Source: Escherichia coli (GTDB taxonomy: Bacteria > Pseudomonadota > Gammaproteobacteria > Enterobacterales > Enterobacteriaceae). Taken from it: DNA of 64,000 bases. Both the position numbers and the translations under genes were made by a program. The stretch lies in assembly GCF_044324875.1 (NCBI RefSeq), contig NZ_CP172186.1. One strand, given 5' to 3'. How positions within the stretch are numbered: position 1 is the stretch's first letter; each line of letters starts with the position of its first letter. This document shows positions 4,385 to 24,339 of the stretch, piece after piece. A model generated the notes under the pieces. It had not been told where the DNA came from. It searched no databases and worked only from the letters and a program-made list of their open reading frames with translations.

Positions 4385-4399
4385 GTTGGAGTCATTACC

Positions 4400-4542
4400 T
4401 AACAAGAGATAAAATCCCCTTCTATATGCTTTCAAAAAATAGTATAAATCGTTATTCTGATATGAGTGATTTTATTCAATCCAATAATGAAACAACTCCA
4501 GAAAAGGCATTTATTAAAGAAGTTATGGGAACAGGGGACTGA
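4400..4542 (+). pseudogene. 3' remnant (about 46 codons) of the gene that preceded mcbG, truncated by IS1
   Basis: Frame is open from the IS1 junction to a TGA 4 nt before the mcbG-like start (...PEKAFIKEVMGTGD*). Confidence 0.35.
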
Positions 4543-4545
4543 CAC

Positions 4546-5511: not shown

Positions 5512-5814
5512 TCAAAAAATGAACTTAGCGTACGATCTCGTACGGTTGGGCCTCAAACCCCTTGTATCAATAGATTCAGTCAATGATCGGAAAGCAATGC
5601 CACGAATTTTCAGGTCTTCAATAATTCGGAGCAAATGTGAGAGTGAACGACCAAGTCGATCCAGTTTCCAGACTATCAGTACATCACCTTCGCGAAGTTC
5701 AGCGAGACAGGACTTAAGTCCCGGGCGATTATCACGAGCACCTGAAGCATGATCCTGATGTAAATGCCGGGGATCCACTCCGGCAGCAATCAACGCATCA
5801 CGCTGTAAAGCAAC
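5512..5814 (-). pseudogene. Serine recombinase (resolvase/invertase) fragment, N-terminus removed by IS66-family insertion
   Basis: ...YVALQRDAL..SGARDNRPGL...GDVLIVWKLDRLGRSL...SLTESIDT matches Hin/Gin/resolvase catalytic domain; catalytic Ser region absent; premature end. Confidence 0.7.
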
Positions 5815-6500: not shown

Positions 6501-6510
6501 CAAAATAGTG

Positions 6511-6535
6511 GTAAGGCCGTCGGGGGCGGCCTTAC
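6511..6535 (-). terminator. Stem-loop downstream of vapC copy 1
   Basis: GTAAGGCCG-tcggggg-CGGCCTTAC, followed on the minus strand by a T-rich run. Confidence 0.45.
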
Positions 6536-6539
6536 TCCT

Positions 6540-6956
6540 TTATCCTGCCCAGTCTTCCAGTACCAGTCCAGGCACCCGCTCAAACTCTCTCACATTATTC
6601 GTCACCAGTATTGCCCCGGTGGCGATGGCGTGCCCGGCGATCGCCGTGTCGTTCGGACCGATCGGCGTGCCGGCGAGGCGCAGCGCCACCTTAACCTCCG
6701 TGGTTGCATCCACCGCAGCGCGATCCCAGGGCAGGATGGCATCGAGACGGGCGCAGAACGCGTCAACCAGCTGCACGTGGCGTGGCGATGCCTTTGGACC
6801 GGTGGCGCCGAAGCGCATCTCGGAGTAGGTGATGGCCGAGACCACTATACGGTGACCGCGCAGCACCGCCTGCTCCAGATTCTTAAGCACTGCTTCAGGC
6901 TGCTCGCGCATGATGAACGAGCAGATGTTCGTGTCGAGCATATAGATCTTGTTCAC
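6540..6956 (-). CDS. vapC: VapC toxin (PIN-domain RNase), copy 1
   Basis: 138 aa MNKIYMLDTNICSFIM...; overlaps vapB by 4 nt. Confidence 0.9.
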   Translation of the reverse strand: MNKIYMLDTNICSFIMREQPEAVLKNLEQAVLRGHRIVVSAITYSEMRFGATGPKASPRHVQLVDAFCARLDAILPWDRAAVDATTEVKVALRLAGTPIGPNDTAIAGHAIATGAILVTNNVREFERVPGLVLEDWAG

Positions 6957-7183
6957 AGGTTAAATCGTCCTTCGTCGCAGACAACGTCCTCGCGTTCCGT
7001 CATAAAGCCCGGATCGGCCTTTTCTAGCTCCAGGAATGAGCTCCAGCTCGGGCGGAGGGGACGCAGAATGATTCTGTCCCCTTCCCGTACAATCTCCAGC
7101 TCACTCACCCCCTCAAAATCCAGATCGCGGGGCAGACGGATCGCGCGGTTATTGCCATTTTTGAAAATAGATACGGTTCTCAT
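6953..7183 (-). CDS. vapB: VapB antitoxin (AbrB/SpoVT-type), copy 1
   Basis: 76 aa MRTVSIFKNGNNRAIRLPRDLDFEG... Confidence 0.9.
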   Translation of the reverse strand: MRTVSIFKNGNNRAIRLPRDLDFEGVSELEIVREGDRIILRPLRPSWSSFLELEKADPGFMTEREDVVCDEGRFNL

Positions 7184-7222
7184 GTCTTCCTCCTGGCAAG
7201 ATGGCTTTTATATATGTTTAGT

Positions 7223-7301
7223 ATATGCAGATGTGATACATATGTATATGTTATAGATATGCAGATGTGTGAGATATGCGTATGCCTGTCATATGCAGAT
7301 G
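7223..7301. promoter_or_regulatory. Three direct ATATGCAGATG repeats at exact 34-bp spacing upstream of vapB copy 1
   Basis: Repeats start at 7223, 7257, 7291; an inverted copy (TATCTGCATG) follows at about 7324. Confidence 0.4.
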
Positions 7302-7708
7302 CCAAACATATGGATATGCATGGTATCTGCATGTTTCTCTCTTTTTTCACCGGGATCCGAAAAATATCAGTCACGGATCTTCCTCTCCCCCACACAACAC
7401 CACCTCCTGTAAGTACAACATGTAGTACTTCCTTCGGCTGCTCATGACACTATATGTTGTGTTATTTCCCTGACTTGTGATGCGCCACGCAGGGGCGGAA
7501 AACAGCGATATGATGATTTCCTCATCGTGTAGACTGGCCCCCTGAATCTCCAGACAACCAGTATCACTTATTTAAGTGATAGTCTTAATACTAGTTTTTA
7601 GACTAGTCATTGGAGAGCAGATGATTGATGTCTTAGGGTAAGCGTACAGCCTGAACCGTCTGGTCAGAATCTGACGAATTAGACAAAGTGGTGTCCACCA
7701 AATAAGTA

Positions 7709-8110
7709 GTGGGAACCAAAGTGTCAGATATGCAGAAAAATGTGACTCCCGGCAGGCGAAAAGGCTGCCCTAATTATCCTCCCGAATTTAAACAGCAGCT
7801 CGTTGCTGCCTCCTGTGAACCCGGGATATCCATCTCAAAACTTGCTCTTGAAAATGGCATTAACGCCAATCTGTTGTTCAAATGGCGACAACAATGGCGC
7901 GAGGGAAAGCTGCTATTACCTTCTTCAGAGAGCCCCCAGCTACTTCCTGTGACTCTCGATGCAGCTGCCGAACAGCCAGAATCGCTCGCAGAGGACCCGG
8001 AAACCCTCAGTATCAGCTGTGAGGTAACGTTCCGGCACGGGACGCTCCGCTTCAATGGCAATGTCAGCGAAAAGCTCCTGACTCTGCTGATACAGGAACT
8101 GAAGCGATGA
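7709..8110 (+). CDS. tnpA: IS66-family TnpA (orf1)
   Basis: 133 aa, HTH-containing. Confidence 0.9.
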   Translation: MGTKVSDMQKNVTPGRRKGCPNYPPEFKQQLVAASCEPGISISKLALENGINANLLFKWRQQWREGKLLLPSSESPQLLPVTLDAAAEQPESLAEDPETLSISCEVTFRHGTLRFNGNVSEKLLTLLIQELKR

Positions 8111-8454
8111 TCCCTTTACCTTCCGGGACCAAAATTTGGCTGGTTGCCGGTATCACCGATATGAGAAATGGCTTCAACGGCCTGGCTGCGAAAGTACAGA
8201 CGGCGCTGAAAGACGATCCCATGTCCGGCCATGTTTTCATTTTCCGGGGCCGCAGCGGCAGTCAGGTTAAACTGCTGTGGTCCACCGGTGACGGACTGTG
8301 CCTCCTGACCAAACGGCTGGAGCGTGGGCGCTTCGCCTGGCCGTCAGCCCGTGATGGCAAAGTGTTCCTTACACAGGCGCAGCTGGCGATGCTGCTGGAA
8401 GGTATCGACTGGCGACAGCCTAAGCGGCTGCTGACCTCCCTGACCATGCTGTAA
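8107..8454 (+). CDS. tnpB: IS66-family TnpB (orf2)
   Basis: 115 aa; overlaps tnpA stop. Confidence 0.9.
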
Positions 8455-8503
8455 ATCTCTTTATCCTGGTTGTCACAGAATAAGCCCGGTAAAATACGGG
8501 CTT

Positions 8504-10042
8504 ATGAACGACATCTCTTCTGACGACATCTTCCTGCTGAAACAGCGCCTGGCCGAACAGGAAGCGCTGATCCACGCCCTGCAGGAAAAGCTGAGCAACC
8601 GGGAGCGCGAAATAGACCATCTGCAGGCGCAGCTGGATAAACTCCGCCGGATGAACTTCGGCAGTCGTTCCGAAAAAGTCTCCCGCCGTATCGCACAAAT
8701 GGAAGCCGATCTGAACCAGCTTCAGAAAGAGAGCGATACGCTGACTGGTAGGGTGTATGACCCGGCAGTACAGCGTCCGTTGCGTCAGACCCGCATCCGT
8801 AAGCCGTTCCCTGAATCACTACCCCGTGACGAAAAGCGACTGTTGCCTGCGGCGCCGTGCTGCCCGAACTGCGGCGGTTCACTGAGCTATCTGGGCGAGG
8901 ATACCGCCGAACAGCTGGAGTTGATGCGTAGCGCCTTCCGGGTTATCCGGACGGTACGGGAAAAACATGCCTGTACTCAGTGCGATGCCATCGTGCAGGC
9001 ACCTGCACCTTCGCGGCCCATCGAGCGGGGTATCGCCGGACCGGGGCTGCTGGCCCGCGTGCTGACCTCGAAGTATGCAGAGCACACCCCGCTGTATCGC
9101 CAGTCAGAAATATACGGCCGGCAAGGTGTGGAGCTGAGCCGTTCACTGCTGTCGGGCTGGGTGGATGCATGCTGCCGGCTGCTGTCTCCGCTGGAAGAGG
9201 CGCTTCATGGCTATGTCATGACTGACGGCAAACTCCATGCCGATGATACCCCGGTCCAGGTACTGATGCCGGGTAATAAGAAGACGAAGACCGGGCGGTT
9301 GTGGGCGTATGTTCGTGATGACCGCAATGCCGGGTCAGCGTTGGCACCTGCAGTGTGGTTCGCTTACAGCCCGGACAGAAAAGGCATCCATCCGCAGACT
9401 CATCTTGCTTGCTTCAGCGGTGTGCTGCAAGCGGATGCGTACGCCGGGTTCAACGAGCTGTATCGCAATGGTGGGATAACGGAAGCTGCCTGCTGGGCTC
9501 ATGCCCGCCGAAAGATCCACGATGTGCACGTCCGCATCCCGTCAGCACTGACGGAAGAAGCCCTGGAGCAGATCGGTCAGTTGTACGCCATAGAGGCGGA
9601 TATAAGGGGAATGCCGGCAGAGCAGCGGCTTGCTGAACGTCAGCGAAAAACGAAACCGCTGTTGAAATCCCTGGAAAGCTGGTTGCGTGAAAAGATGAAG
9701 ACCCTGTCGCGACACTCAGAGTTGGCGAAGGCGTTCGCGTACGCACTTAACCAGTGGCCGGCACTGACGTACTATGCGAACGATGGCTGGGTGGAAATCG
9801 ACAACAACATCGCTGAAAATGCCCTGCGGGCGGTAAGTCTGGGTCGTAAAAACTTCCTGTTCTTCGGCTCTGGCCATGGTGGTGAGCGGGGAGCGCTACT
9901 GTACAGCCTGATAGGGACGTGCAAACTGAATGACGTGGATCCAGAAAGCTACCTTCGCCATGTGCTTGGCGTCATAGCAGACTGGCCGGTCAACCGGGTC
10001 AGCGAACTGCTTCCGTGGCGCATAGCACTGCCAGCTGAATAA
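8504..10042 (+). CDS. tnpC: IS66-family transposase TnpC
   Basis: 512 aa; N-terminal leucine zipper, CxxC...C zinc motif, DDE core. Confidence 0.95.
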
Positions 10043-10087
10043 CACATCCCCGTCAATACGGCCCTCGCTGTACGCTTACGTCTTAGG

Positions 10088-10436
10088 ACCGGAGAAACGC
10101 AGACGGCGTACCACACAGGAAAAGATCGCAATTGTTCAGCAGAGCTTTGAACCGGGGATGACGGTCTCCCTCGTTGCCCGGCAACATGGTGTAGCAGCCA
10201 GCCAGTTATTTCTCTGGCGTAAGCAATACCAGGAAGGAAGTCTTACTGCTGTCGCCGCCGGAGAACAGGTTGTTCCTGCCTCTGAACTTGCTGCCGCCAT
10301 GAAGCAGATTAAAGAACTCCAGCGCCTGCTCGGCAAGAAAACGATGGAAAATGAACTCCTCAAAGAAGCCGTTGAATATGGACGGGCAAAAAAGTGGATA
10401 GCGCACGCGCCCTTATTGCCCGGGGATGGGGAGTAA
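10088..10436 (+). pseudogene. insC: IS2 insC (OrfA), split by the IS66 insertion after codon 6
   Basis: ATGATTGATGTCTTAGGG at 7621-7638 encodes MIDVLG; remainder [18 protein letters not shown]... resumes at 10088. Confidence 0.85.
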
Positions 10437-11299
10437 GCTTAGTCAGCCGTTGTCTCCGGGTGTCGCGTGCGCAGTTGCACGTCATTCTCAGACGAACCGA
10501 TGACTGGATGGATGGCCGCCGCAGTCGTCACACTGATGATACGGATGTGCTTCTCCGTATACACCATGTTATCGGAGAGCTGCCAACGTATGGTTATCGT
10601 CGGGTATGGGCGCTGCTTCGCAGACAGGCAGAACTTGATGGTATGCCTGCGATCAATGCCAAACGTGTTTACCGGATCATGCGCCAGAATGCGCTGTTGC
10701 TTGAGCGAAAACCTGCTGTACCGCCATCGAAACGGGCACATACAGGCAGAGTGGCTGTGAAAGAAAGTAATCAGCGATGGTGCTCTGACGGGTTCGAGTT
10801 CCGCTGTGATAACGGAGAAAAACTGCGAGTCACGTTCGCGCTGGACTGCTGTGACCGTGAGGCACTGCACTGGGCGGTCACTACGGGCGGCTTCAACAGT
10901 GAAACAGTACAGGACGTCATGCTGGGAGCGGTGGAACGCCGCTTCGGCAACGAGCTTCCGGCGTCTCCAGTAGAGTGGCTGACGGATAATGGTTCATGCT
11001 ACCGGGCTAATGAAACACGGCAGTTTGCCCGGATGTTGGGGCTTGAACCGAAGAGCACGGCGGTGCGGAGTCCGGAGAGTAACGGCATAGCAGAGAGCTT
11101 CGTGAAAACGATAAAGCGTGACTACATCAGTGTCATGCCCAAACCAGACGGGTTAACGGCAGCAAAGAACCTTGCAGAGGCGTTCGAGCATTATAACGAA
11201 TGGCATCCGCATAGTGCACTGGGTTATCGCTCGCCACGGGAATATCTACGGCAGCAAGCCAGTAATGGGTTAAGTGATAACAGGTGTCTGGAAATATAG
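10394..11299 (+). CDS. insD: IS2 InsD (OrfB, DDE transposase)
   Basis: 301 aa [21 protein letters not shown]... Confidence 0.9.
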
Positions 11300-11563
11300 G
11301 GGCAAATCCAAAAAATACTTAGGAATAATTTATGTAAAACAGGTTGTCGTCTTCATGATTTAAACGCAGTACATATATATACTCTATAATAAATACAGGG
11401 AGTATCACGAGACGTCTGGATAAGAGGAATAACCAGAATAAATTGGTAAGGAATAAAGACACTTATTTCTATTGAGAAAAAACATTTATCCTGATGTGAT
11501 TAGTATCAATGAAATAATGTGCTTGTATGGTTGATAAAAATGCATCACTAAAGAAAAAACAGT

Positions 11564-14500
11564 ATGAATAAGAATATACGAATTTTACAGTTTCTGGTCA
11601 GTATACTTTATTCTGTGCAGTCTCATTTTTCTGGTGCGCAAACAATACAACTGAATGGTAATGGTATACCTGAAAGTATAACCAGGAGTATTACAGGTGT
11701 TGATGGAAACGCGGCGCTTAATATCAGCGTGCCGTATAAAACAAGTTATACTCAAAATATACTATCTGTTGAAAGCAGTATTAACATCAAAGGAGGAACA
11801 AGCAATACATCAATCGGTGGTGCAGGTGTCTACGGTGAAAACTTTACGCTAAATAATAATGGTAGTGTTTGGGGAGGAGATGGATATAATGGTGGAGTTG
11901 CTGTTAGTGGCAACAAAATATCTATAAACAATTACAGAAATGTATATGGGGGTAATGGTCTTGGTGGCTCAGGAAGTAGCGGAGGTGCAGGGTTAAGCGG
12001 GGATGATATTATAGTTGATAATTACAGAAGTATATACGGAGGTGATGATCTAGGTGGGACAGGTGGTTCCGGTGTAACCGGGAGCAATATTACAGTGCAT
12101 AATTCCGGAGGAATATGGGGTGGTAATGGCGTAAACGGTGGTGATGGTATTAATGGTAGTAATCTTTTCATTACTAACGACAACATGATATCTGGAGGAT
12201 ATGGAATAAAACAAGGGGGAGATGCTATTTCTGGAAATCAAATCACTTTGAATAATAACGGTATTGTTCAGGGGGGATATGGCCCCGACGGTAGTTGCTC
12301 TGTTTATGGAGAAGATATCCATATTAATAATCATGGTAATATTTCAGGCTCATATAATAGCCAAAAAGATGCTTATAACACATCAATAATTTTTTCTGCT
12401 GGGTATAATTCATTAGATATTTATTCAGATTCTGTGATTAATGGTGATATTAAACTAGCTAGTATACCTGTTAATGGTACAAATGAATTAATTATTAAAA
12501 ACATCAATAACGCAACAGCAATTAATGGTGGGCTAATGATTGGGAATGGCTCGTCTGTTTATCTGTCAAGCAAGAACATCATTTTTAACGGAAATATAAG
12601 TATTGATGAAGACGCATCTATGAACCTGTCTGCAGGAAATGCTAATGTTCACGCAAATACTATTACATTAAAAAGTGATTCATGGCTTAATATAGACACA
12701 TCAATTAAGAACTGGACTCAGGACTATTACACATTATTGTCGTCAGACACAGGTATCTCGATCGCTGATAATAGTCACATTGTACAATACAATGTATTAC
12801 TGACAGAAGGTGCTGAAAGTTATGTTTATACGTCTTTAAATGACGACGATAACAAACTGATATCCATGCTGAGATGGAATAATACAAAAGGGATGGGATA
12901 TGGAACCTTTAATATAGAAAAAGATGCCACTCTGAACATAGGAGTTTCTCTTTCCGATAATCTTTCACCTTTATTATATGATGGCTGGGACGGCAAAAGT
13001 CTGACAAAATCAGGTAATGGTACTCTTATACTTTCTGCAACAAACAACTATACAGGAAATACAGAGGTTAAATCTGGCGTATTAATTCTTGCTGCACCTG
13101 ATGCTCTTGGTCGGACTGAGTATTTATATTTATCCCGTGGCGCAGAACTGGATATGAATGGGTATCCTCAGACAATAAGCAAACTACTGACGGCTGCAGG
13201 CTCTGTGCTGAACATTCATGGCGGAAGCCTGATACTGAATAATGGAGGAGAATCTGCAGGTACTATTGCAGGGGATGGTTCTCTGAACATAAATGGGGGA
13301 ATGCTTGATATAACGGGTAATAATCGTAATTTTTCCGGTGTTTTTACCGTGAATAAGGGGGCTCAGTTGGCTGTATCCACGGCTGATAATCTGGGGACAG
13401 CCTTTGTTGATAACTATGGCACATTAACTCTGAACAGTACATCAGCATGGCAGCTTACCAACAATATCAGTGGTTATGGTAATGTTCGCAAGACGGGAGC
13501 AGGTGCACTGAACATTAGCGATAACGCAAAATGGACCGGGATGACAGATATTATTCAGGGGACATTGATTCTGGGTAACGCAGATTCACCGGTGATGCTC
13601 GGCAGTAACCAGGTCATTGTTGAAGAGCAGGGCAAACTCTCCGGGTTTGGGGGCGTTGCAGGAAATCTGAGCAATAGTGGTATAGTCGATCTCACTACAT
13701 ATATGCCGGGTAATATACTGACTGTCGGAGGGAATTACACTGGCAGAAATGGACTTATTCTCCTCCAGACAGAAACAGGTGGTGACAATTCGAAAACAGA
13801 TCGTCTGGTGATTAAAGGTAATGCCAGTGGCCGTACCCGTGTCGCTGTTACTCAGGCCGGTGGTACTGGTGCAGAGACACTTAATGGGATTGAAGTGATT
13901 CACGTCAGTGGCAATGCTGATAATGCTGAATTCATTCAGACGGAACGTATTACAGCCGGAGCTTATGATTACATACTGAAACGTGGTCAGGGGATTAACA
14001 GCACTAACTGGTATCTGATTAGCAGAAAAGACATTCCTGTACCACAACCTGAAGCTGTACCGGAAAACCATGATAATAATTTGCGTCCTGAGGCAGGTAG
14101 CTATGTTGCCAGTATTGCTGCTGCAAATAATCTGTTTGTAACGAATCTGTATGAACGACAGGGACAGGAGTTGTATATCAGCCACATGACAGGAGAAGAA
14201 AATGAAGCAGGTATCTGGATGTATAATAAAGGAAAACATAATCGCTGGCGTGACAACAGTAGTCAGCTGAGAACCCGGGGGAATAGCTACGTTGTGTTAA
14301 TAGGGGGAGATATAGCTCAGTGGAGCCTGAATGGTACCGATCGCTGGCATACAGGTATGATGGCTGGCTATGGTCATAATCATAACAGTACGAATGCCCT
14401 GAGCACCGGATACCATTCGGAAGGAAGAATGAATGGATACACTGCGGGTCTTTATGCAACATGGTATGCCAATGATGAAACACACAATGGTTCTTATCTT

Positions 14501-15061
14501 GATAGCTGGCTGCAATACAGCTGGTTTGATAATCATATAAATGGAGAACGGCTGCCTGCTGAGTCATGGAAGTCAAAAGGGTTTACGGTATCTCTGGAAG
14601 CAGGATATTCATGGAAGGCTGGAGAGTTTACCGACAATTACAAGGGAAGTCATGAATGGTATGTTCAGCCGCAGCTTCAGGTTGTCCGGATGAATGTAAA
14701 ATCAGACAGACATCGTGAAAGTAACGGAACCAGTATTGAAAATACCGGTAACGGAAATATTCTCACTCGCCTGGGAGCGAGAACATGGTTTGTCAGTAAA
14801 AACGGTAAGAATTCACGGTATGCAGTTCCTCTCAGGCCATTTGTAGAAGTAAACTGGCTGCACAATAGTCGTGTTTTCGGCACCAGTATGAATGGTGTAA
14901 GTATTTACCAGGATGGGGCGCATAATATCGGAGAAATAAATGGTGGTGTTGTGGGAGTGATAACTCCAGAAGTGGTATTGCGGGCTGATGCAGGCATTCA
15001 ACTTGGAGAGCATGGATACCGCAATGCATCTGCTATGTTCGGCGTGGAATATCGTTTCTGA
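11564..15061 (+). CDS. Autotransporter (type Va) adhesin-like protein, AIDA-I/Ag43 type
   Basis: 1165 aa; N-terminal signal peptide; Gly-rich repetitive passenger (GGxGxxGG repeats); C-terminal beta-barrel ending ...FGVEYRF; AT-rich. Confidence 0.8.
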   Translation: MNKNIRILQFLVSILYSVQSHFSGAQTIQLNGNGIPESITRSITGVDGNAALNISVPYKTSYTQNILSVESSINIKGGTSNTSIGGAGVYGENFTLNNNGSVWGGDGYNGGVAVSGNKISINNYRNVYGGNGLGGSGSSGGAGLSGDDIIVDNYRSIYGGDDLGGTGGSGVTGSNITVHNSGGIWGGNGVNGGDGINGSNLFITNDNMISGGYGIKQGGDAISGNQITLNNNGIVQGGYGPDGSCSVYGEDIHINNHGNISGSYNSQKDAYNTSIIFSAGYNSLDIYSDSVINGDIKLASIPVNGTNELIIKNINNATAINGGLMIGNGSSVYLSSKNIIFNGNISIDEDASMNLSAGNANVHANTITLKSDSWLNIDTSIKNWTQDYYTLLSSDTGISIADNSHIVQYNVLLTEGAESYVYTSLNDDDNKLISMLRWNNTKGMGYGTFNIEKDATLNIGVSLSDNLSPLLYDGWDGKSLTKSGNGTLILSATNNYTGNTEVKSGVLILAAPDALGRTEYLYLSRGAELDMNGYPQTISKLLTAAGSVLNIHGGSLILNNGGESAGTIAGDGSLNINGGMLDITGNNRNFSGVFTVNKGAQLAVSTADNLGTAFVDNYGTLTLNSTSAWQLTNNISGYGNVRKTGAGALNISDNAKWTGMTDIIQGTLILGNADSPVMLGSNQVIVEEQGKLSGFGGVAGNLSNSGIVDLTTYMPGNILTVGGNYTGRNGLILLQTETGGDNSKTDRLVIKGNASGRTRVAVTQAGGTGAETLNGIEVIHVSGNADNAEFIQTERITAGAYDYILKRGQGINSTNWYLISRKDIPVPQPEAVPENHDNNLRPEAGSYVASIAAANNLFVTNLYERQGQELYISHMTGEENEAGIWMYNKGKHNRWRDNSSQLRTRGNSYVVLIGGDIAQWSLNGTDRWHTGMMAGYGHNHNSTNALSTGYHSEGRMNGYTAGLYATWYANDETHNGSYLDSWLQYSWFDNHINGERLPAESWKSKGFTVSLEAGYSWKAGEFTDNYKGSHEWYVQPQLQVVRMNVKSDRHRESNGTSIENTGNGNILTRLGARTWFVSKNGKNSRYAVPLRPFVEVNWLHNSRVFGTSMNGVSIYQDGAHNIGEINGGVVGVITPEVVLRADAGIQLGEHGYRNASAMFGVEYRF

Positions 15062-15207
15062 TGACTCTTTACATTATGAACATTCTTCGCAATATATTGT
15101 TTATAAGGCATGGTTAGCTGGGGGAAGCGGAAAATATGAAGACAGTAATGATTTGAACCGCCCCGGAAATCCTGGAGACTAAACTTCCTGAGAAAGATGT
15201 AAACAGG

Positions 15208-15534
15208 ATGACTAAAAATACTCGTTTTTCCCCCGAAGTCCGTCAACGGGCAGTTCGTATGGTTCTGGAAAGCCAGGGCGAATATGACTCACAATGGGCG
15301 GCAATTTGTTCCATTGCTCCAAAGATTGGCTGTACGCCAGAGACCCTGCGTGTCTGGGTTCGCCAGCATGAGCGGGATACCGGGGGCGGTGATGGTGGGC
15401 TCACCACCGCTGAACGTCAGCGTCTGAAAGAGCTGGAACGCGAAAATCGTGAACTGCGCCGCAGTAACGATATCCTTCGCCAGGCTTCCGCTTATTTTGC
15501 GAAGGCGGAGTTCGACCGCCTCTGGAAAAAATAA
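15208..15534 (+). CDS. IS3-family transposase OrfA
   Basis: 108 aa [26 protein letters not shown]... Confidence 0.9.
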
Positions 15535-15555
15535 TGCCACTGCTGGATAAGCTGC

Positions 15556-16401
15556 GTGAGCTGCAGTGAGCTGCATATTGCCCCGTCAACGTATTACCAC
15601 TGTCAGCAACAGCAGCATCATCCTGATAAACGCAGCGCCCGTGCGCAGCGTGATGACTGGCTGAAGAAAGAGATACAGCGCGTATACGATGAAAATCACC
15701 AGGTGTACGGTGTGCGTAAAGTCTGGCGTCAGTTGTTACGGGAAGGTATCAGAGTGGCCAGATGCACTGTGACACGTCTTATGGCGGTTATGGGTTTTGC
15801 CGATGTTCTCCGGGGTAAAAAGGTCCGCATTACCGTCAGCCGGAAAGCCGTTGCCGCAGGCGACCGCGTAAACCGTCATTTCGTGGCAGAACGTCCTGAC
15901 CAGCTGTGGGTGGCTGATTTTACTTACGTCAGCACATGGCAGGGCTTTGTTTATGTGGCGTTCATCATTGATGTGTTTGCCGGATACATCGTGGGATGGC
16001 GGGTCTCCTCGTCCATGGAAACGACATTCGTGCTGGATGCACTGGAGCAGGCGTTGTGGGCCCGTCGTCCATCTGGCACCATCCATCACAGCGATAAAGG
16101 CTCTCAGTATGTATCGCTGGCCTACACGCAGCGGCTTAAGGAAGTCGGATTACTGGCATCAACAGGGAGCACAGGCGACTCGTATGACAACGCGATGGCG
16201 GAGAGCATCAATGGTCTTTACAAGGCGGAGGTAATACACCGTAAGAGCTGGAAAAACCGGACAGAAGTGGAGCTGGCTACACTCACGTGGGTGGACTGGT
16301 ATAACAATCGACGATTGCTGGAAAGGCTGGGCCATACTCCCCCGGCAGAAGCAGAAAAAGCTTATTATGCTTCCATCGGAAACAATGATCTGGCAGCCTG
16401 A
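15556..16401 (+). CDS. IS3-family transposase OrfB (DDE; made as OrfAB fusion by -1 frameshift)
   Basis: 281 aa; tracked start is an alternative codon downstream of the frameshift window. Confidence 0.85.
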   Translation: MSCSELHIAPSTYYHCQQQQHHPDKRSARAQRDDWLKKEIQRVYDENHQVYGVRKVWRQLLREGIRVARCTVTRLMAVMGFADVLRGKKVRITVSRKAVAAGDRVNRHFVAERPDQLWVADFTYVSTWQGFVYVAFIIDVFAGYIVGWRVSSSMETTFVLDALEQALWARRPSGTIHHSDKGSQYVSLAYTQRLKEVGLLASTGSTGDSYDNAMAESINGLYKAEVIHRKSWKNRTEVELATLTWVDWYNNRRLLERLGHTPPAEAEKAYYASIGNNDLAA

Positions 16402-16493
16402 GTTCACAGACAAAACATTCTCCAGGAAACCCGGGGCGGTTCAATATGGATACCAGCTGTTCACTTCCAGAGCGGGCTGTTACCCGCTCTGCG

Positions 16494-17726
16494 TCATGTT
16501 GCCGCCAGCGGGCGACAGATCGCCCGCAGGGCGACGGCGCTGCACAGCGGAAACAGCGCCAGCAGAAGCCAGGGATAAACCGCCTGCGGCGACGGAATGA
16601 GCGCCTGGTCAAGTAAATGACCGAGCAGTAAATTCCCGGCTAACACCGCGCACCCTCCTGCGGTGGCGAGCGCTCCGTAGTGGGCGCCCAGCGTCGACTC
16701 CTCGGCGAACAGCGGGATCAGATCCTTGGCTGCGGGCACTAACAGCATCTGGCCGAGGGTGAGCAGCGTGACAAAACCAGCCGCCGGCATTAACCGCAGC
16801 CAACTTTCGGCGGGTGGGGCGGCGGCGAATAACGCCACGCTGGCAAAGGAAGCCGACAGCAGCAGAAAGCCCACCGGCAGGATGCGCACGGCGCCCATTC
16901 GCCGGGCGAAGCGGGCGAGAGGGAGCTGGAGGGTGATAATCAACAGCGAGGCCAGCATAAAGAGCGGCGCCAGATCCTGCTCGCGGCCGCCGGAACGTTG
17001 GATCTCCACCGGCAGAGCGAGGTAGAGTTGGTTGTAGCTCAACAGCCATGAGCTGTAGGCGAGAATAAACGCGACAAAGCGCGGCTGGCGCAAAGGCGTC
17101 CACCATGGGACTCGTCTGCGCGTTGTTGTCGTGTGCCCGTCGGCGGGCAGACCGAAAAAGAGCACCGCCAGCGCCAGAAGAAATATTCCCGCGCCGGCGA
17201 GGGCGATATGTCGAAAGCCGATCCCGCTCAGCACGCCTCCGGCCACCGGGCCGATCACCGCTCCCAGTTCACCGCATACCGCAAACAGCGCAAACCACTC
17301 GGCGCGGCTGCGTTTCCCGTTGGCCTGGCTGTGGGTACCGGCCCGCGCCAGCAGGGCCTCTATCGACGGGGAGAACAGGGCGCCGCCGACGCCGGTCAGG
17401 CAGGCGCCAAGGATAATGGCCCACAGCGACGCCCCGCACGCCAGCAGGAGAAAACCGGCGACGCGAACGACGCAGCCGGCGAGAATGATCGCCTTAGCGC
17501 CATAGCGGTCGGCCAGCGTCCCGCCGAGGATAAACATCCCCTGTTGGGAGAAGGTACGCAGCCCGAGGATCAGGCCGATAAGTCCGCCTGAGAGCAGCAT
17601 GTCGTCGCGCAGGAAGAGGGCGAGGAAAGGTACGACCGCGTAAAAGCCAATATTAAAAACGAACTGGCTTCCCAGTAACACCGGAGGCCAGAGGGTTGCC
17701 GCAGGGCGCAGGGAGAAAAGAGGCAT
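16494..17726 (-). CDS. MFS transporter
   Basis: 12-TM-like hydrophobic profile; ATG at 17726 chosen (tracked ORF extends to 17816 and overlaps the ATPase gene). Confidence 0.7.
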   Translation of the reverse strand: MPLFSLRPAATLWPPVLLGSQFVFNIGFYAVVPFLALFLRDDMLLSGGLIGLILGLRTFSQQGMFILGGTLADRYGAKAIILAGCVVRVAGFLLLACGASLWAIILGACLTGVGGALFSPSIEALLARAGTHSQANGKRSRAEWFALFAVCGELGAVIGPVAGGVLSGIGFRHIALAGAGIFLLALAVLFFGLPADGHTTTTRRRVPWWTPLRQPRFVAFILAYSSWLLSYNQLYLALPVEIQRSGGREQDLAPLFMLASLLIITLQLPLARFARRMGAVRILPVGFLLLSASFASVALFAAAPPAESWLRLMPAAGFVTLLTLGQMLLVPAAKDLIPLFAEESTLGAHYGALATAGGCAVLAGNLLLGHLLDQALIPSPQAVYPWLLLALFPLCSAVALRAICRPLAAT

Positions 17727-17737
17727 ATCCGCCCAAC

Positions 17738-18502
17738 CTAAACGATGAAATGAATGTGCTTTTTGCCGTGGTAAGGGGAGATCTCGATTTTGGTTTTCAC
17801 CCGGAAAACGTCCCACAGCAGCGCTTCGGACAAAATCTCCTCCGGCGTCCCGCTGGCGAGGATCTGCCCCTGCTGCATCACGATCAGCGAATCGCAGAAC
17901 ATCGCGGCATGGTTAAGATCGTGAATGGCCACAATGCTGGTTACCGGCAGCTCGCTGATCAACTGCATTAACTGCATCTGATGGTGTATATCCAGATGGT
18001 TGGTCGGCTCATCCAGCAGGATTTCGCTCGGGCTCTGCGCCAGCGCGCGGGCGATATGCACCCGCTGCCGCTCGCCGCCGGAGAGGCTTAACCATCCCTG
18101 TTCGCTTTTCTCCAGCATCGCTACCCGCTGCAGCGCGGCGGCAATCGCTTCGTCATCCTGAGCGCTCCAGTTTGAGAACGGAGAGTGGTGGGGAATGCGT
18201 CCCAGGCGCACGACGTCGCGCACCCGCATATTGGCCTCGGTCATGCCGTGTTGCTCGACGCAAGCCACGCGGCGGGCGAGCTGCTTTTTCGCCATCCGGG
18301 CGATATCCTGGCCGTCGAGGGTGACGCGACCTGCATCCGGGCGGCGCAGGCCCGCCAGAACGCGCAGCAGCGAGGATTTGCCGCAGCCGTTGGGCCCCAG
18401 CAGTCCGACCGTTTCTCCGCGCGGCACCCGCAGCGAGACATTATTGACGATGACCTTTTTGCCTGCCTTCCAGGTGATATTTTCAGCGCAAATACTCATC
18501 AC
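17738..18502 (-). CDS. ABC transporter ATP-binding protein (FecE/FepC-like, iron-chelate uptake)
   Basis: Walker A GPNGCGKSS, signature LSGGERQR, Walker B ILLDEPT. Confidence 0.9.
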   Translation of the reverse strand: MMSICAENITWKAGKKVIVNNVSLRVPRGETVGLLGPNGCGKSSLLRVLAGLRRPDAGRVTLDGQDIARMAKKQLARRVACVEQHGMTEANMRVRDVVRLGRIPHHSPFSNWSAQDDEAIAAALQRVAMLEKSEQGWLSLSGGERQRVHIARALAQSPSEILLDEPTNHLDIHHQMQLMQLISELPVTSIVAIHDLNHAAMFCDSLIVMQQGQILASGTPEEILSEALLWDVFRVKTKIEISPYHGKKHIHFIV

Positions 18503-19536
18503 TTATTCCTTGAGCGGTAGATAATCACGGCAAAGAAAGGCACCCCAACCAGGGCGGTTACTACCCCAACGGGCAGACTTTGCGGGGCAATCAGCAGGCG
18601 CGACGCAATGTCCGCCAGTACCATCAATATCGCCCCTGCCAGCGCGCTGGCGATCAGCAACGTTCGGTGCAGCGGGCCAAAGAAGAAACGCATCACGTGC
18701 GGCACCACCAGGCCAACAAAGCCGATTGAGCCGGCCATGCTGACGATGGTGGCGGTGATCAGCGCCGCAGTGGTGAAGAGGATCAGGCGCACGCGCGGCA
18801 CAGCAATCCCCAGCGAGGCGGCGGCATCGTCGCCGAAGGTGAACGCGTCCAGCGCCCGGGCATACCACAGGCAGACCGCCAGACCCGCGAGCACCACCAC
18901 GATGACCAACTGGAATTCGGGCCAGCGGACGCCGCTGAAGCTGCCCAGCAGCCAGAACATCACATCGCGCGCCTGCTGCGCGCTGGCGGTGGTGCTGATG
19001 GTATAGGCCGTGATGGCGTTAAATAACTGCGAGGCGGCGACGCCCGCAAGAATCGTACGCTCATTGCCGCCGCGCGCGCCGTTAGTCAGCAAGGCGACAA
19101 AGGCGAAGGCGGCGAAGGCCCCGGCAAAGGCGCCTGCCGAGAGGGAAATTGCGCCAGAGCCAAGGCCCAGCACCACGATCGACACCGCGCCGGTGGAGGC
19201 CCCGGCGGAGACGCCGAGGACGTAGGGTTCGGCGAGGGCATTCTTCAGCAAGCTTTGCAGCACGACACCGCAGATAGCGAGGCCGGCGCCGCAGCAGGCG
19301 GCGACCAGCGCGCGGCTGAGGCGGAAATCCCAGATAACGCTCTCATAGATACGGTTGAGCGGCTCAGCGGTTAAGCCGGTTCTGTTGCTGATAGCATAAA
19401 AGACATTCTGCAGCGGGATGGCCAGCTCGCCAACGCTGACGCCCACAGCGATCACCAGCGCCAGCACGATCGCTGCCAGTACACACCAGCCGGTGAGCAG
19501 TATGCTGCGGCACGTCTCAATCGCGCCGACGCTCAT
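18499..19536 (-). CDS. ABC transporter permease (FecCD family)
   Basis: 345 aa, multi-TM; overlaps the ATPase gene start by 4 nt. Confidence 0.85.
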   Translation of the reverse strand: MSVGAIETCRSILLTGWCVLAAIVLALVIAVGVSVGELAIPLQNVFYAISNRTGLTAEPLNRIYESVIWDFRLSRALVAACCGAGLAICGVVLQSLLKNALAEPYVLGVSAGASTGAVSIVVLGLGSGAISLSAGAFAGAFAAFAFVALLTNGARGGNERTILAGVAASQLFNAITAYTISTTASAQQARDVMFWLLGSFSGVRWPEFQLVIVVVLAGLAVCLWYARALDAFTFGDDAAASLGIAVPRVRLILFTTAALITATIVSMAGSIGFVGLVVPHVMRFFFGPLHRTLLIASALAGAILMVLADIASRLLIAPQSLPVGVVTALVGVPFFAVIIYRSRNK

Positions 19537-20534
19537 CAGTTCAGCCCCATTTTTCTCAGCTGCTCGCCCACCTGCTCCGCGCCGTAAAGCGTGCGAATGG
19601 TCGGATTCATCGCCTGACCGTCCATGACCACGATATGGCCTTTTTTCACCGCCTCCAGCTGGCTGACGGCGGGATCGCTTTTGAGGAATTTGATCTTCTC
19701 CTCGGCTTTATCCAGCGCCCAGCGGTTACGATCCAGGCTGGCGACCACGATCACATCCGGGTTGGCGGCAATAATGCTCTCCCAGCTCACCGTGGGCCAC
19801 TCGGTTTCGGAGGTAATCGCATTATGTCCGCCCAGCACGCTGGCGATAAATCCGGAGGCGCTGTTTTTGCCGCCGACATAGGCATCGGCCGAAGGTGAGG
19901 CGCTGGAGAACCAGAAGACGAAGGAGAGATCCTTTTTGCTTTTACCAAACTCCTGGCGCAGGTCGGCTTCACGTTTTTTGAAATCGGCAATCAGCGCCTG
20001 ACCACGATCTTCGACGTTGAAAATGCGGGAAAAATCGCTAATTTCCTGATACAGCCAGGTCATATCCCACAGCTTTTGCCGGCTGCCGTACATATCGCCG
20101 GTGGCCTTTTTGGTGGCGCACACCCCCGGTGAGACGTAGCTGTTCACGCCGACGGTGGCGAGATCTTCACGCCTGGCGACTTTGCTTTCCGGCCCCAGCA
20201 GCAGCGGCAACTGGGCGGGAACGAAATCAGGATTTTGCGCCAGCACCGATTCCAGGCTCGGAATTTCCACCGTCAAGGTTTTAATCTTCGCGTTTTGCTC
20301 AGCCAGCTGCGGTAAAACGCTGGTCGGCCAGAAGGCGCTGGCGACCACCTGCTTTTGCAGCCCGAGCAGCAGCAGAATTTCGACCGTATTTTGCCCCAGC
20401 GCGACCACGCGCTCCGGCGGCCGGGTGAAGGTCTCCTGATAGCCGCAGTTTTCAATCGTCAGGGGGTAGGTTGTTGCCAGCGCGGAACTGACGGCGGTGA
20501 ACATCAAGCCTAACGCGCAAAGGACCTTCTTCAT
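19536..20534 (-). CDS. Periplasmic substrate-binding protein (iron-siderophore/heme/B12 class)
   Basis: 332 aa with N-terminal signal peptide MKKVLCALGLMFTAVSSALA; first gene of a four-gene operon. Confidence 0.8.
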   Translation of the reverse strand: MKKVLCALGLMFTAVSSALATTYPLTIENCGYQETFTRPPERVVALGQNTVEILLLLGLQKQVVASAFWPTSVLPQLAEQNAKIKTLTVEIPSLESVLAQNPDFVPAQLPLLLGPESKVARREDLATVGVNSYVSPGVCATKKATGDMYGSRQKLWDMTWLYQEISDFSRIFNVEDRGQALIADFKKREADLRQEFGKSKKDLSFVFWFSSASPSADAYVGGKNSASGFIASVLGGHNAITSETEWPTVSWESIIAANPDVIVVASLDRNRWALDKAEEKIKFLKSDPAVSQLEAVKKGHIVVMDGQAMNPTIRTLYGAEQVGEQLRKMGLN

Positions 20535-20585
20535 TAAACGCTATCCTTGTAAACAGGCGAGTGGATGACCAGCAAATGGGAGTAA

Positions 20586-20607
20586 TGCAAATGAAACTCA
20601 TTATTAT
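20586..20607. promoter_or_regulatory. Fur-box-like site upstream of the ABC importer operon
   Basis: GCAAATGAAACTCATTATTATC; 14 of 19 matches to GATAATGATAATCATTATC, 50-70 bp upstream of the start codon. Confidence 0.45.
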
Positions 20608-20647
20608 CGCGGGGTTTTATACAATGCCATATTTACAGTGTCAATGT

Positions 20648-20850
20648 GTTCTTGCCCCCTTATTTCCAGACAGGGGTTGTATCTTAAGTTAATGTTACCC
20701 GCTGACGTCGATATTCTCGCGGAGAGCGATAACCCAACGCACTGTGCGGATGGTTTTCATTGTAATGTTCGATCGCCACTGCAAGATTATGCAATGCCGT
20801 TCTTACATTCGGTTTCGGCATGAACGCGATGTAGTCTTCCTTGGGGTCCG
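20648..20850 (-). mobile_element. Remnant of an IS2-related element (right end with IR)
   Basis: TTGCCCCCTTATTTCCAGACA ... GAGCGATAACCCAACGCACTGTGCGGATGG resembles the IS2 right end at 61063-61260 at roughly 75-80 percent identity. Confidence 0.5.
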
Positions 20851-20888
20851 CCTGGAAAACGGAAAATATCCCACGCTAAGACTATTTT

Positions 20889-21479
20889 CTATACAGTAAC
20901 AGTTTGCTGTTTCGCTCTAACTCTCAGAATTGTTTGCCGTGTGGTTCGGAATTCCCTGGCAATAGCACTTATACTTGCCCCAGACTTAATGTGTTCGAGT
21001 ACCTTCTGTTTTTGTTCTTCATTTAATACCGGTGGGCGACCAAAACGTTTTCCTGCATCCCGTGCTCTTGCTATCCCTGAATAAGTTCGTTCAAGTAAAA
21101 GATCTCGTTCAAATTCAGCGACCGCTGAAATCACTTGCATTGTCATTTTTCCTGCCGGACTGGTCAGATCAACACCACCTAATGCCAGGCAATGTACCCT
21201 GATGCCAGATTCGGTCAGTTGCTCCACTGTTTTCCTGATATCCATTGCATTACGACCGAGGCGATCCAGTTTTGTGACTATCAATACATCGCCACTTTCC
21301 AGACGATCAAGCAACCGGTTAAAACCTGGACGTTCACTGGCTGCTACTGATCCACTAATTTGTTCTTCGATTATTCGTTGGGGTCTGACGTTAAAACCCG
21401 CGCTTTCGATTTCCCGACGTTGATTTTCGGTCGTCTGTTCCAGAGTGGAAACCCGACAATAGGCAAAAATTCGAGACAT
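20889..21479 (-). CDS. Serine recombinase (resolvase) with C-terminal HTH
   Basis: 196 aa [15 protein letters not shown]... (catalytic Ser), ...[11 protein letters not shown]... Confidence 0.9.
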
Positions 21480-21521
21480 AGTGAGATCTTCTGTACGAAA
21501 TGGGTGTACATATTATAATGC

Positions 21522-21594
21522 ATGTCCGAAAGTAATTTCGCTGACTTTCGGATATATCTGTTTAACAATGTCCGAAACCGGTCGATTTCGGACA
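21522..21594. promoter_or_regulatory. res-like site: palindromic subsites upstream of the resolvase gene
   Basis: TGTCCGAAA-N8-TTTCGGACA perfect dyad at 21569-21594 plus TGTCCGAAAG...CTTTCGGATA at 21522-21555. Confidence 0.5.
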
Positions 21595-21979
21595 CCAAAA
21601 CCACTGTTGTCCCGCCATTCTGGCGATTCCTGAAAGCCCTTTGGCTAAAAAATAGTCTTAACATGGTTTATTTTCCGAATTCCAAACTGACCCCGCTAAC
21701 GCGGAGATACGTCCCGACTTCGGGTAAACCCTCGTCGGGACCACTCCGACCGCGCACAGAAGCTCTCTCATGGCTGAAAGCGGGTATGGCTTAGCAGGGC
21801 TGGGGATGGGTAAGGTGAAATCTATCAATCAGTACCGGCTTACGCCGGGCTTCGGCGGTTTTACTCCTGTGCCATATGCAACAACGGAGTGCCGCCTTAC
21901 ATGCGCTGACGCGCATTATTTGCCTTGTTCCGTCTGAAACTAATCACTATGATTAAATATGATTAACAACTAATCGGGT

Positions 21980-22264
21980 ATGCAAATGAAAAACAATACC
22001 GCACAGGCAACAAAAGTCATTACCGCGCATGTGCCATTACCAATGGCTGATAAAGTCGACCAGATGGCCGCCAGACTGGAACGCTCCCGGGGCTGGGTTA
22101 TCAAACAGGCGCTTTCTGCATGGCTTGCCCAGGAGGAGGAGCGTAATCGCCTGACGCTGGAAGCCCTGGACGATGTGAAATCCGGACAGGTTATCGACCA
22201 TCAGGCTGTACAGGCCTGGGCGGACAGCCTCAGTACTGACAATCCGTTACCGGTGCCACGCTGA
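21980..22264 (+). CDS. RHH (CopG/ParD-like) antitoxin
   Basis: 94 aa; precedes and abuts a RelE/ParE-like toxin gene. Confidence 0.75.
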   Translation: MQMKNNTAQATKVITAHVPLPMADKVDQMAARLERSRGWVIKQALSAWLAQEEERNRLTLEALDDVKSGQVIDHQAVQAWADSLSTDNPLPVPR

Positions 22265-22539
22265 TGGAACTGAAGTGGACCAGTAAGGCGCTTTCTGATT
22301 TGGCGCGGTTATATGATTTTCTGGTGCTGGCCAGTAAACCTGCGGCCACCAGAACGGTGCAGTCCCTGACACAGGCACCGGTCATTCTGTTAACTCATCC
22401 ACGTATGGGAGAACAGTTGTTTCAGTTTGAACCCAGGGAGGTCAGACGGATTTTTGCTGGCGAGTACGAAATCCGTTACGAACTTAATGGCCAGACTATT
22501 TATGTATTGCGCCTGTGGCACACACGAGAAAACAGGTAG
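22264..22539 (+). CDS. RelE/ParE-family toxin
   Basis: 91 aa MELKWTSKALSDLARLYDFL...IYVLRLWHTRENR. Confidence 0.8.
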   Translation: MELKWTSKALSDLARLYDFLVLASKPAATRTVQSLTQAPVILLTHPRMGEQLFQFEPREVRRIFAGEYEIRYELNGQTIYVLRLWHTRENR

Positions 22540-22644
22540 ATTGTGTGTGGGGACAACTTAACATAGCCTGCAGATATTAATTCTGGAACATTATTATCAG
22601 GCCAGATATTTTTCATTCCATTAAATAATCTTGTAGGAGATAAA

Positions 22645-22884
22645 ATGAATTACGATGAAATAACGAAAATTACCGCTGAACGTATTAGCGACTACATGAC
22701 CGAAGCAGTTAATACAGACTCTATAGCCGTTGCGGAAATGTTTCATAACGCTGCATGGGGAGTGCGAACATTGTGGTTTGAACTCGTCACAAAAATAGAT
22801 ATGGATATACATAAAAAGAACAGGTATGCGAGTTATGATCTTAGAAGGAAAATCGAAATACAGCATGAAGAGTTTCACGTATAG
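22645..22884 (+). CDS. Hypothetical small protein (low GC)
   Basis: 79 aa ORF with GGAG RBS (AGGAGATAAAATG); no recognisable motif. Confidence 0.3.
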
Positions 22885-23046
22885 GAAATTGAAAAACTAA
22901 GCGATACCACTGTCCGCGTCTTATGCCTCGTGCGGTAAGCTGTTTTTCACATCACGCCGGTGTTTTTTCTCTCTGCGTGGTCGGTTTTTATACTGCGGAT
23001 GGGGTTTTTTATCCTTTCCCCGGATTGCTGACACACTTACCCTGTA

Positions 23047-24339
23047 TCAGGCCGGCACATACCTCAGCAGACTGATATCCCGCGCGTTTTTCTTCAGCCC
23101 TGATACATTCAGCCCCGCAAGGGCCCGGCGGTATACCATCCGGCCGCCACACAGCACGCATTCGAACGGGTCACGACTCAGGAACTGTTTCACCATTTGT
23201 GCATAGCACACTTTCGCCACCGGTTCCGGTTTATCCATCCCCAGAGCTCGGTACACCTGCGGCAGCTTCTCTCCACACCCCCGGTTGGCAAGGAACCCGA
23301 AGTACCTCACCATCTTAAAAAACTTCTCCGGGATGTGCTGTTTCATCCTCGCGACCAGCTCACGCTGCGTCAGCGTTTCCGTCGCTGTCTCTCCCGTTTT
23401 GTGGTCCAGGTAACGGAAGCTCAGGCTCGCCCCTCCGTTGTAATGTGCCAGCCGGGAAGCCGCTATTGGTGGCTTCTTCAGATAACGACCCAGGTAGCGT
23501 GCCGTATTCCGCCCGCCGGCCGTCTTCTTCGACATGTACACATGCCAGTATTTTCCGCCGGCTTTCAGCACCAGGCTTCTCCACTGTGATTCCGTCGTGA
23601 TATGTGACAACGACTCCGGCATCGCCATCCCCTCTGACCACGCTTTCAGAAGCAACTGCCGTATATTCCACATCCACCGCGAACGCATTGCGTCTTTCAG
23701 GAAGCTCAGCTTTTTCCACTGACCGTGCTTATTCAGCCCCCCGCAGGTTACTGACACATGTACATGCGGATGCCAGTTGAGACGACGGCCATATGTGTGG
23801 ATGGCGCAGAAGATACCGGGTTCCAGCCCCCGTTTTCGGGCGGCATACAGCAGCCAACGGTTGCTTTCGAACACCGGCCACAGCGTGTCCGGCAGGGTGA
23901 AGACCAGGTGTACCCAGTCGCAGTCAGGAAGACGATTCAGCTGTGTCGCTGTCCACAGGTCTGTGGCCTTTTTTCCGCAGGACGGGCAGGCACGGCTGCC
24001 ACATGAGTTAGTGACGTATCTGACGTGGGGACAGTCAGGTTTATCGCAGTTGTATTCCTTCACGCCCAGTATCCGCGTGCCGCAGGCCAGCATTTTGGTG
24101 ACAGCCTCAACCTCGATATCGCGCAGACCGCCCGCATCCAGGAAGGACGTCCAGCACTGGTTGGCTGTGAACAGGCGTTTCAGCGGACGGGGCTGAAAAT
24201 CACCACCACTTCGGGTCATCCATCCTGCACGCTCCATCTGATAATGTTCTGACAGGTAAAAATAATATCCTGCATGATTTGTGTGCTCATGATTTCTGAT
24301 AATATCAGATATTGTTTTATCATCAATGATGAAAACCAT
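23047..24339 (-). CDS. IS91-family rolling-circle transposase (HUH, Y2)
   Basis: N-terminal Zn-finger CPHVRYVTNSCGSRACPSCG; HUH-like HTYGRRLNWHPHVHV; element ends not delimited. Confidence 0.85.
   Translation of the reverse strand: MVFIIDDKTISDIIRNHEHTNHAGYYFYLSEHYQMERAGWMTRSGGDFQPRPLKRLFTANQCWTSFLDAGGLRDIEVEAVTKMLACGTRILGVKEYNCDKPDCPHVRYVTNSCGSRACPSCGKKATDLWTATQLNRLPDCDWVHLVFTLPDTLWPVFESNRWLLYAARKRGLEPGIFCAIHTYGRRLNWHPHVHVSVTCGGLNKHGQWKKLSFLKDAMRSRWMWNIRQLLLKAWSEGMAMPESLSHITTESQWRSLVLKAGGKYWHVYMSKKTAGGRNTARYLGRYLKKPPIAASRLAHYNGGASLSFRYLDHKTGETATETLTQRELVARMKQHIPEKFFKMVRYFGFLANRGCGEKLPQVYRALGMDKPEPVAKVCYAQMVKQFLSRDPFECVLCGGRMVYRRALAGLNVSGLKKNARDISLLRYVPA

Follow-up and report, generated by a model that had tools for sequence, protein, structure and literature searches.

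Known systems and the eitABCD operon

The ATP-binding cassette (ABC) importers FecBCDE, FhuDBC, FepBDGC and BtuFCD of Escherichia coli share their architecture and protein families with Eit, the product of eitABCD, a previously named and published iron-transport operon of avian-pathogenic E. coli (APEC) virulence plasmids. Its Fur site in plasmid pKF3-70, its TTGACA -35 box and its spread “as an isolated genetic element” have already been published (PMC2797631), and an IS629 flank was noted earlier in pAPEC-O1-ColBM (PMC3251573). Outside E. coli, the described system that probably bears most closely on Eit is CbtJKL, a riboswitch-controlled Co(II) ABC importer on pSymB of Sinorhizobium meliloti (PMC7689651; PMC12239276). 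A literature search for functional data on eit yielded only gene-presence surveys and one negative phenotype study.

We analysed the operon in a stretch of 64,000 nucleotides of E. coli DNA (contig NZ_CP172186.1, assembly GCF_044324875.1), referred to below as the window. The locus is eitABCD, correctly observed here but already described: its 4257 bp interval is 100% identical to positions 86810-91066 of pAPEC-O1-ColBM (NC_009837.1), including both junctions with insertion sequences (IS). Compared with the reference copies on pAPEC-O1-ColBM, pAPEC-O2-ColV, pChi7122-2 and pKF3-70, it has the same gene order, Fur site and -35 box, with no difference of substance at the locus itself, whereas the surrounding plasmid is a different mosaic. 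Matches of at least 99% identity to the interval were found in 257 plasmid records, and at least 80% of it was covered in 222. The operon is carried by 218 of 5426 complete E. coli genomes (4%); of its 229 occurrences there, 224 are on plasmids, and the identity is never below 99%. All four open reading frames (ORFs) were uninterrupted in 225 records, again with identities of at least 99%. Recent RefSeq records give the gene names eitA, eitC and eitD.

Our best explanation, to which we assign a probability of roughly 0.8, is that Eit is a Fur-repressed type II ABC importer of a small iron-containing solute, accompanied by an accessory exporter of the major facilitator superfamily (MFS), and that the cassette was acquired horizontally from environmental or plant-associated Enterobacterales and has spread between IncF virulence plasmids, flanked on either side by IS elements. 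The protein families and gene organisation (Table 1) establish the transporter class: Eit is a type II (BtuCD/FecCD-type) ABC importer with a class III binding protein, and all components and motifs were matched. EitA scored 696.1 bits against the NCBIfam equivalog NF052484 (cut-off 640) and EitC scored 518.7 bits against NF052485 (cut-off 485). EitC carries a Walker A motif (GPNGCGKS) at residue 35, the LSGGE signature at residue 139 and an H-loop at residue 193. EitB is strongly hydrophobic along the entire protein and, as the product of the sole permease gene of the operon, presumably forms a homodimer. The overlapping or close junctions of the four genes indicate one transcript, with overlaps of 1 nt at both eitA/eitB and eitB/eitC and a gap of 11 nt between eitC and eitD when the latter starts at ATG 17726.

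Similarity to the other E. coli importers is distant, although apparent control by Fur matches the iron systems among them. EitA scored only 30 bits against FecB (cut-off 320) and 24.5 bits against FepB (cut-off 205). Eit also stands apart from FecBCDE, FhuDBC, FepBDGC and BtuFCD: it has only one permease gene, lacks a gene for a cognate outer-membrane receptor and includes an additional MFS gene.

A preliminary description of the window, made from its sequence, had proposed a minus-strand operon of binding protein, FecCD permease, FecE-like ATPase and MFS genes, and the ORFs and Pfam matches bear this out. It had also called the operon more GC-rich than its surroundings and placed it between one copy of an IS629-like element and an IS2-related remnant. 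Both points hold: the operon has a GC content of 62.0%, with 73-80% at third codon positions, vs 51.3% for the remaining window, of which it is the most GC-rich 4-kb stretch, and the two flanking elements were confirmed by comparison. The homology check suggested there, of the binding protein against siderophore, heme and B12 families, places EitA within its own equivalog and far below the cut-offs of FecB, FepB, IsdE and BtuF. The overall interpretation, a horizontally acquired, GC-rich importer of iron-chelate type with an MFS gene, was thus supported on each point tested.

Table 1. Genes, regulatory sites and flanking elements of the eit module, in window coordinates.
Feature	Position	Strand	Description
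eitA	19536-20534	-	Periplasmic class III substrate-binding protein, 332 aa; Pfam Peripla_BP_2; N-terminal signal peptide MKKVLCALGLMFTAVSSALA
eitB	18499-19536	-	FecCD/BtuC-type permease, 345 aa; Pfam FecCD, 4.5e-86
eitC	17738-18499	-	ABC ATPase, 253 aa; Pfam ABC_tran
eitD	16494-17726	-	MFS transporter, 410 aa from ATG 17726; Pfam MFS_1, 8e-31 (ORF extends to 17816)
Sigma-70-type promoter	20616-20644	-	-35 TTGACA 20644-20639; 17-nt spacer; -10 TATAAA 20621-20616
Fur-box-like operator (putative)	20587-20605		14/19 match; core palindrome AATGA-N3-TCATT at 20590-20602
Shine-Dalgarno-like AAGGA	20544-20548	-	9 nt before the eitA ATG; GGATAG conserved in orthologues
IS629/IS1203-like element (copy B)	15154-16443	+	IS3 family; ~93% identity to IS629/IS1203 copies in E. 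coli genomes
orfA	15208-15534		Within the IS629/IS1203-like element
orfB	15556-16401		Within the IS629/IS1203-like element
ALIL frameshift pseudoknot	15489-15575		Within the IS629/IS1203-like element
IS2-related transposase gene, 3' remnant	20647-20842	-	IS3 family, ISEc48-like; by sequence comparison

The RefSeq annotation begins eitD at GTG 17681 (395 aa), 45 nt downstream of ATG 17726. The methionine at 17726 aligns with the start methionine of six EitD orthologues, which lies 11-14 nt after eitC, and a start at the GTG would drop a conserved N-terminal stretch; the true start is therefore probably the ATG. The protein resembles DHA-type or efflux-type MFS members, from which export would be the expected direction of transport. 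Its best NCBIfam match was MdtH (119 bits, below the cut-off of 469), its nearest solved structure was the NorA efflux pump (4e-9), and a crude hydropathy scan gave 10 peaks.

An MFS protein 64% identical to EitD is encoded on virulence plasmids of Klebsiella pneumoniae such as pKP12-vir (NZ_CP082766.1, 5626-11925), where it is likewise embedded in the operon of a metal-related ABC importer, here a Nik/Opp-type system with a NikA/CntA-like binding protein, a fused NikBC permease and two ATPases. The partner importer is from an unrelated ABC family, and in place of the Fur-like site of eit the upstream region carries a Zur-box-like sequence, AATGTTATGTTATCACATT, with zur-like, hisI and zigA genes nearby. 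This type of MFS protein thus pairs with metal-regulated importers of two unrelated ABC families. The K. pneumoniae operon is possibly an uncharacterised zinc-starvation uptake system of hypervirulence plasmids.

The promoter and the Fur-like operator

The preliminary description had pointed to a 14/19 match to the Fur consensus some 50-70 bp upstream of the operon. Such a site was found 53-71 nt upstream of the eitA ATG (20534), shortly after the -10 box. Taken by itself, its score carries little weight: matches of 14/19 or better occur at 3 of ~128,000 window positions on both strands, and one of the other two (2099-2117) falls inside an inverted IS629-like copy, the last being at 62840-62858. 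The direct IS629-like copies themselves score 13/19, at 16093 and 59794. The core palindrome AATGA-N3-TCATT occurs once in the window vs 0.13 times expected by chance.

Conservation across species supports a Fur-type operator much more strongly than does the match score. We aligned the region upstream of eitA from seven loci, namely the E. coli plasmid, a Klebsiella sp. plasmid, a Pantoea dispersa megaplasmid, a Cronobacter plasmid and the chromosomes of Serratia, Kluyvera and S. rubidaea. Mean column identity was 63%, against which three invariant blocks stand out: TTGAC in the -35 box, GTATAA in the -10 box and AATGA(G/T)TTTCATTTnCAT in the Fur core. The invariance of these blocks therefore indicates a conserved promoter whose -10 box is closely followed by a Fur-type operator, to which Fur would be expected to bind. 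An automatic scan proposed a different promoter (ATGGCA/GATAAT, 20630-20603), which was rejected since its hexamers are not conserved in the orthologues, whereas TTGACA and TATAAA are.

These elements suggest the following as the most likely mechanism. EitA would be exported to the periplasm, where it may capture a small iron-containing solute and dock on the EitB homodimer, a type II BtuCD/FecCD-type permease, with import driven by ATP hydrolysis in an EitC dimer. EitD, an MFS protein of efflux type made from the same transcript, may serve as an accessory that most likely exports the ligand or a by-product. Transcription is proposed to start from the conserved TTGACA/TATAAA promoter and to be blocked by Fe(II)-Fur at the operator just downstream, so that eit would be expressed only under iron starvation. 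The locus identity, protein families, fold, gene organisation and conservation of promoter and operator were observed directly; we infer iron as the metal, the direction of transport by EitD, the chemical form of the substrate and the binding of Fur.

Several observations weigh against this reading. The putative operator matches the Fur consensus at only 14 of 19 positions, receptor or siderophore genes are unlinked to eit in most contexts examined, and the closest characterised relative probably imports cobalt rather than iron. Furthermore, plasmid pChi7122-2, which carries eitABCD, gave no signal on chrome azurol S (CAS) agar, conferred no growth advantage under iron restriction, whether or not heme or hemoglobin was supplied, and showed no iron-uptake phenotype with FeSO4 (PMC3251573).

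Receptor linkage, probable cobalt-importer relatives and candidate substrates

The preliminary description had reported neither a TonB-dependent receptor nor a siderophore-synthesis gene, leaving the substrate and the outer-membrane partner open, and in the literature examined both are still open. None of these genes was found near the operon among the annotated genes at ~7500-24000, the remaining window not having been surveyed. Serratia, Raoultella, Kluyvera, Lelliottia, Kosakonia, Phytobacter and Buttiauxella, among others, encode EitA orthologues with 83-89% identity on the chromosome, and further ones are found on Pantoea megaplasmids. The cassette is surrounded by unrelated genes in Serratia, Kluyvera, S. 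rubidaea and Pantoea, and neither a TonB-dependent receptor nor a siderophore-synthesis gene lies within 10 kb. No TonB-dependent receptor adjoins eit in Cronobacter, where eitD is divergently transcribed, or on Rhizobium chromids, which encode EitABC at ~65% identity without the MFS gene; eitD is also absent from S. rubidaea. The absence of a linked receptor in native contexts is thus a usual property of the cassette, and not damage by the flanking IS elements.

A TonB-dependent receptor encoded elsewhere could bring in the solute as a ferric xenosiderophore or chelate, or the solute could be a small species that requires no dedicated receptor; we regard the odds between the two as roughly even. 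The first takes its most classical form if Eit is the inner-membrane importer for a ferric xenosiderophore that enters through an unlinked TonB-dependent receptor of the host, with EitD exporting or recycling the ligand. This is a possible explanation, and the best placed of the alternatives considered here, yet it falls short of an even chance. It is implied by the NCBIfam name ‘siderophore ABC transporter’ and is in keeping with the putative Fur-type operator and with a 33%-identical homologue in Calothrix encoded behind a TonB-dependent receptor gene. It is also supported by plasmid NZ_CP082361.1 of Klebsiella sp. CTHL.F3a (8001-16683), in which eitABCD (87% EitA identity) is directly followed by genes for a FecI-like sigma factor, FecR and a FauA/FhuE-like TonB-dependent receptor. 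This is, however, the only context found with a receptor adjoining eit; the linkage is absent from Pantoea, Serratia, Kluyvera, S. rubidaea, Cronobacter, Rhizobium and E. coli, and Rahnella carries the same receptor module without eit. The Klebsiella receptor was therefore rejected as a general outer-membrane partner. Moreover, no candidate siderophore is known, and the closest relatives in sequence and fold are all uncharacterised or, in one case, a probable cobalt importer.

The fold of EitA is compatible with several ligands. In an AlphaFold2 model (predicted local distance difference test 88.6, predicted TM-score 0.86), EitA has two lobes joined by a single long helix (residues 175-197), as in the class III fold common to many siderophore binders, among them YfiY, YclQ, CeuE, FepB and BauB, which favours a xenosiderophore as ligand. 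The top PDB matches all belonged to the class III binding proteins, and their TM-scores reached 0.82. The best of them (4mlz, 4n01 and 5cr9) are uncharacterised structural-genomics proteins, after which come, with similar scores, proteins that bind heme, B12, molybdate or siderophores; assignment of a ligand from the fold or from solved structures was rejected, as these classes are not discriminated. Residues invariant across the Eit and Cbt binding proteins include many Trp, Tyr, Glu and Arg and two Cys, with no conserved His, a pattern that was set aside as not interpretable without model coordinates.

EitA, EitB and EitC are 43%, 54% and 46% identical over their full lengths (E-values 2e-100, 1e-116 and 4e-74) to the products of three S. 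meliloti pSymB genes that stand in the same order directly behind a cobalamin riboswitch. The record is unannotated, and its location and riboswitch suggest that this locus is cbtJKL. CbtJKL is thus probably the closest characterised relative of Eit, and the nearest that we found whose substrate had been assigned by experiment. In the clade with binding proteins 37-46% identical to EitA, seven intact operons were sampled (from S. meliloti, Allorhizobium, Paracoccus alcaliphilus, Pseudosulfitobacter, Streptomyces, R. gallicum and S. chiapasense); all have a cobalamin riboswitch immediately upstream, and cobalamin-synthesis genes adjoin one of them. In contrast, no cobalamin riboswitch was found at any of 11 Eit-clade loci (at least 62% identity), the window included; here Rfam gave no match at 20400-20900 with an E-value up to 1, and no riboswitch reached the gathering score anywhere in the window. 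Eit and CbtJKL share the order of binding protein, FecCD permease and ATPase, and the Cbt-clade loci with gene tables likewise have no linked TonB receptor. They differ in that the Cbt clade has the riboswitch, whereas Eit has a Fur-type operator and, in Enterobacterales, the MFS gene. The riboswitch in seven of seven Cbt-clade loci vs none of 11 in the Eit clade makes Eit look like a sister lineage under a different regulator. An alignment upstream of the alphaproteobacterial Eit-clade operons (Rhizobium, Neorhizobium and Paracoccus) gave no convincing shared regulatory motif.

In the Calothrix operon (sp. NIES-4105 plasmid, 2150-8057) a cobalamin riboswitch follows the ATPase gene instead of preceding the binding-protein gene, and class I ribonucleotide reductase genes are adjacent to it.

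A second explanation, which we put forward tentatively and hold to be rather doubtful, is that Eit is a Fur-controlled, non-siderophore sister of CbtJKL that takes up a small metal species, be it iron in ionic or weakly chelated form or a different divalent metal, and needs no TonB receptor of its own. One transporter scaffold could in that case have exchanged a B12-sensing RNA switch for an iron-sensing protein repressor. Such a history would explain the receptor-less cassette in most native contexts together with the failed siderophore and heme assays, and also why the RefSeq label ‘siderophore ABC transporter EitA’ may be a spreading misannotation. The pairing of EitD-type MFS proteins with two unrelated metal-regulated importers is consistent with it.

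It is less probable, and in our view unlikely, that Eit imports a metal other than iron, for example cobalt as does CbtJKL, in which case the Fur-like site would either be incidental or tie the uptake of that metal to iron status. The identity of EitABC to the pSymB proteins, the shared gene order and the riboswitch in every operon of the 37-46% clade speak for cobalt. However, ligand specificity is not fixed by 43% identity between binding proteins, the riboswitch is missing both from the window and from the ten other Eit-clade loci, and a Fur-type operator is conserved in its place. The cobalt need of E. coli is small, which also counts against this alternative.

An equally unlikely alternative is that eit is silent or neutral cargo in E. 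coli, hitch-hiking with IS elements on successful virulence plasmids. The IS junctions on both sides, the presence of the operon in just 4% of complete genomes and the eit plasmid without a phenotype (PMC3251573) count in its favour. Against it stand the intact, near-identical ORFs noted above, the retention of the cassette in many chromosomes of other genera, and an IS remnant that stops 3 bp short of the -35 box and so leaves the conserved promoter and operator intact.

Import of heme or a corrinoid is very improbable, for although some orthologue records are labelled ‘hemin-binding periplasmic protein HmuT precursor’ and ShuT, HmuT and BtuF are among the fold matches of EitA, its scores lie far below the cut-offs (35 bits vs 299 for IsdE, 28 vs 234 for BtuF), the window yielded no riboswitch, and heme and hemoglobin gave the eit plasmid no growth benefit (PMC3251573).

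Plasmid context and significance

The right end of the IS629/IS1203-like element abuts the eit module. An identical direct copy lies 43.7 kb away (58853-~60142), and a diverged inverted copy is found at 1953-3076. Both direct copies have a shortened ALIL element (87 nt, 63.8 bits), while that of the inverted copy is full (117 nt, 116 bits). The direct pair could serve as a composite-transposon frame or as a deletion substrate. On the other side of the module, the IS2-related remnant has 74% nucleotide and 67% amino acid identity to IS2 and ~97% identity to ISEc48-like copies.

The possibility that the whole window corresponds to pAPEC-O1-ColBM was rejected, as the two are collinear only over ~7500-24000; elsewhere the window matches other IncF plasmids piecemeal (NZ_CP032263.1, NZ_CP100501.1). 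The window is therefore from a different mosaic virulence plasmid, one without a whole-length counterpart in the plasmid collection. Immediately upstream of the IS and eit module is an autotransporter gene (11564-15061, 1165 aa) of low GC content (33-47%), so that beside the 62% of eit there are two foreign segments of opposite composition joined by an IS. Further along, at 41461-41581, Rfam identified a group II catalytic intron domain (67.4 bits), where related plasmids have an annotated ltrA reverse transcriptase/maturase.

The eitABCD operon is used as a marker in the virulence typing of APEC and extraintestinal pathogenic E. coli, and the plasmids that carry it move between poultry, humans and Klebsiella. 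Its presence here as such adds nothing to the literature, in which the Fur site, the -35 box, the IS629 flank and the cassette-like spread had already been described (PMC2797631; PMC3251573). What is added is the invariance of the -35, -10 and Fur core sequences across seven loci, the finding that the cassette is receptor-less in most native contexts, and its probable kinship with CbtJKL. The current ‘siderophore’ label of Eit is unproven, and caution is warranted as it spreads by automatic annotation. The comparative result is a modest but testable pointer to the substrate, towards uptake of a metal ion or small chelate and towards the question of tonB dependence.

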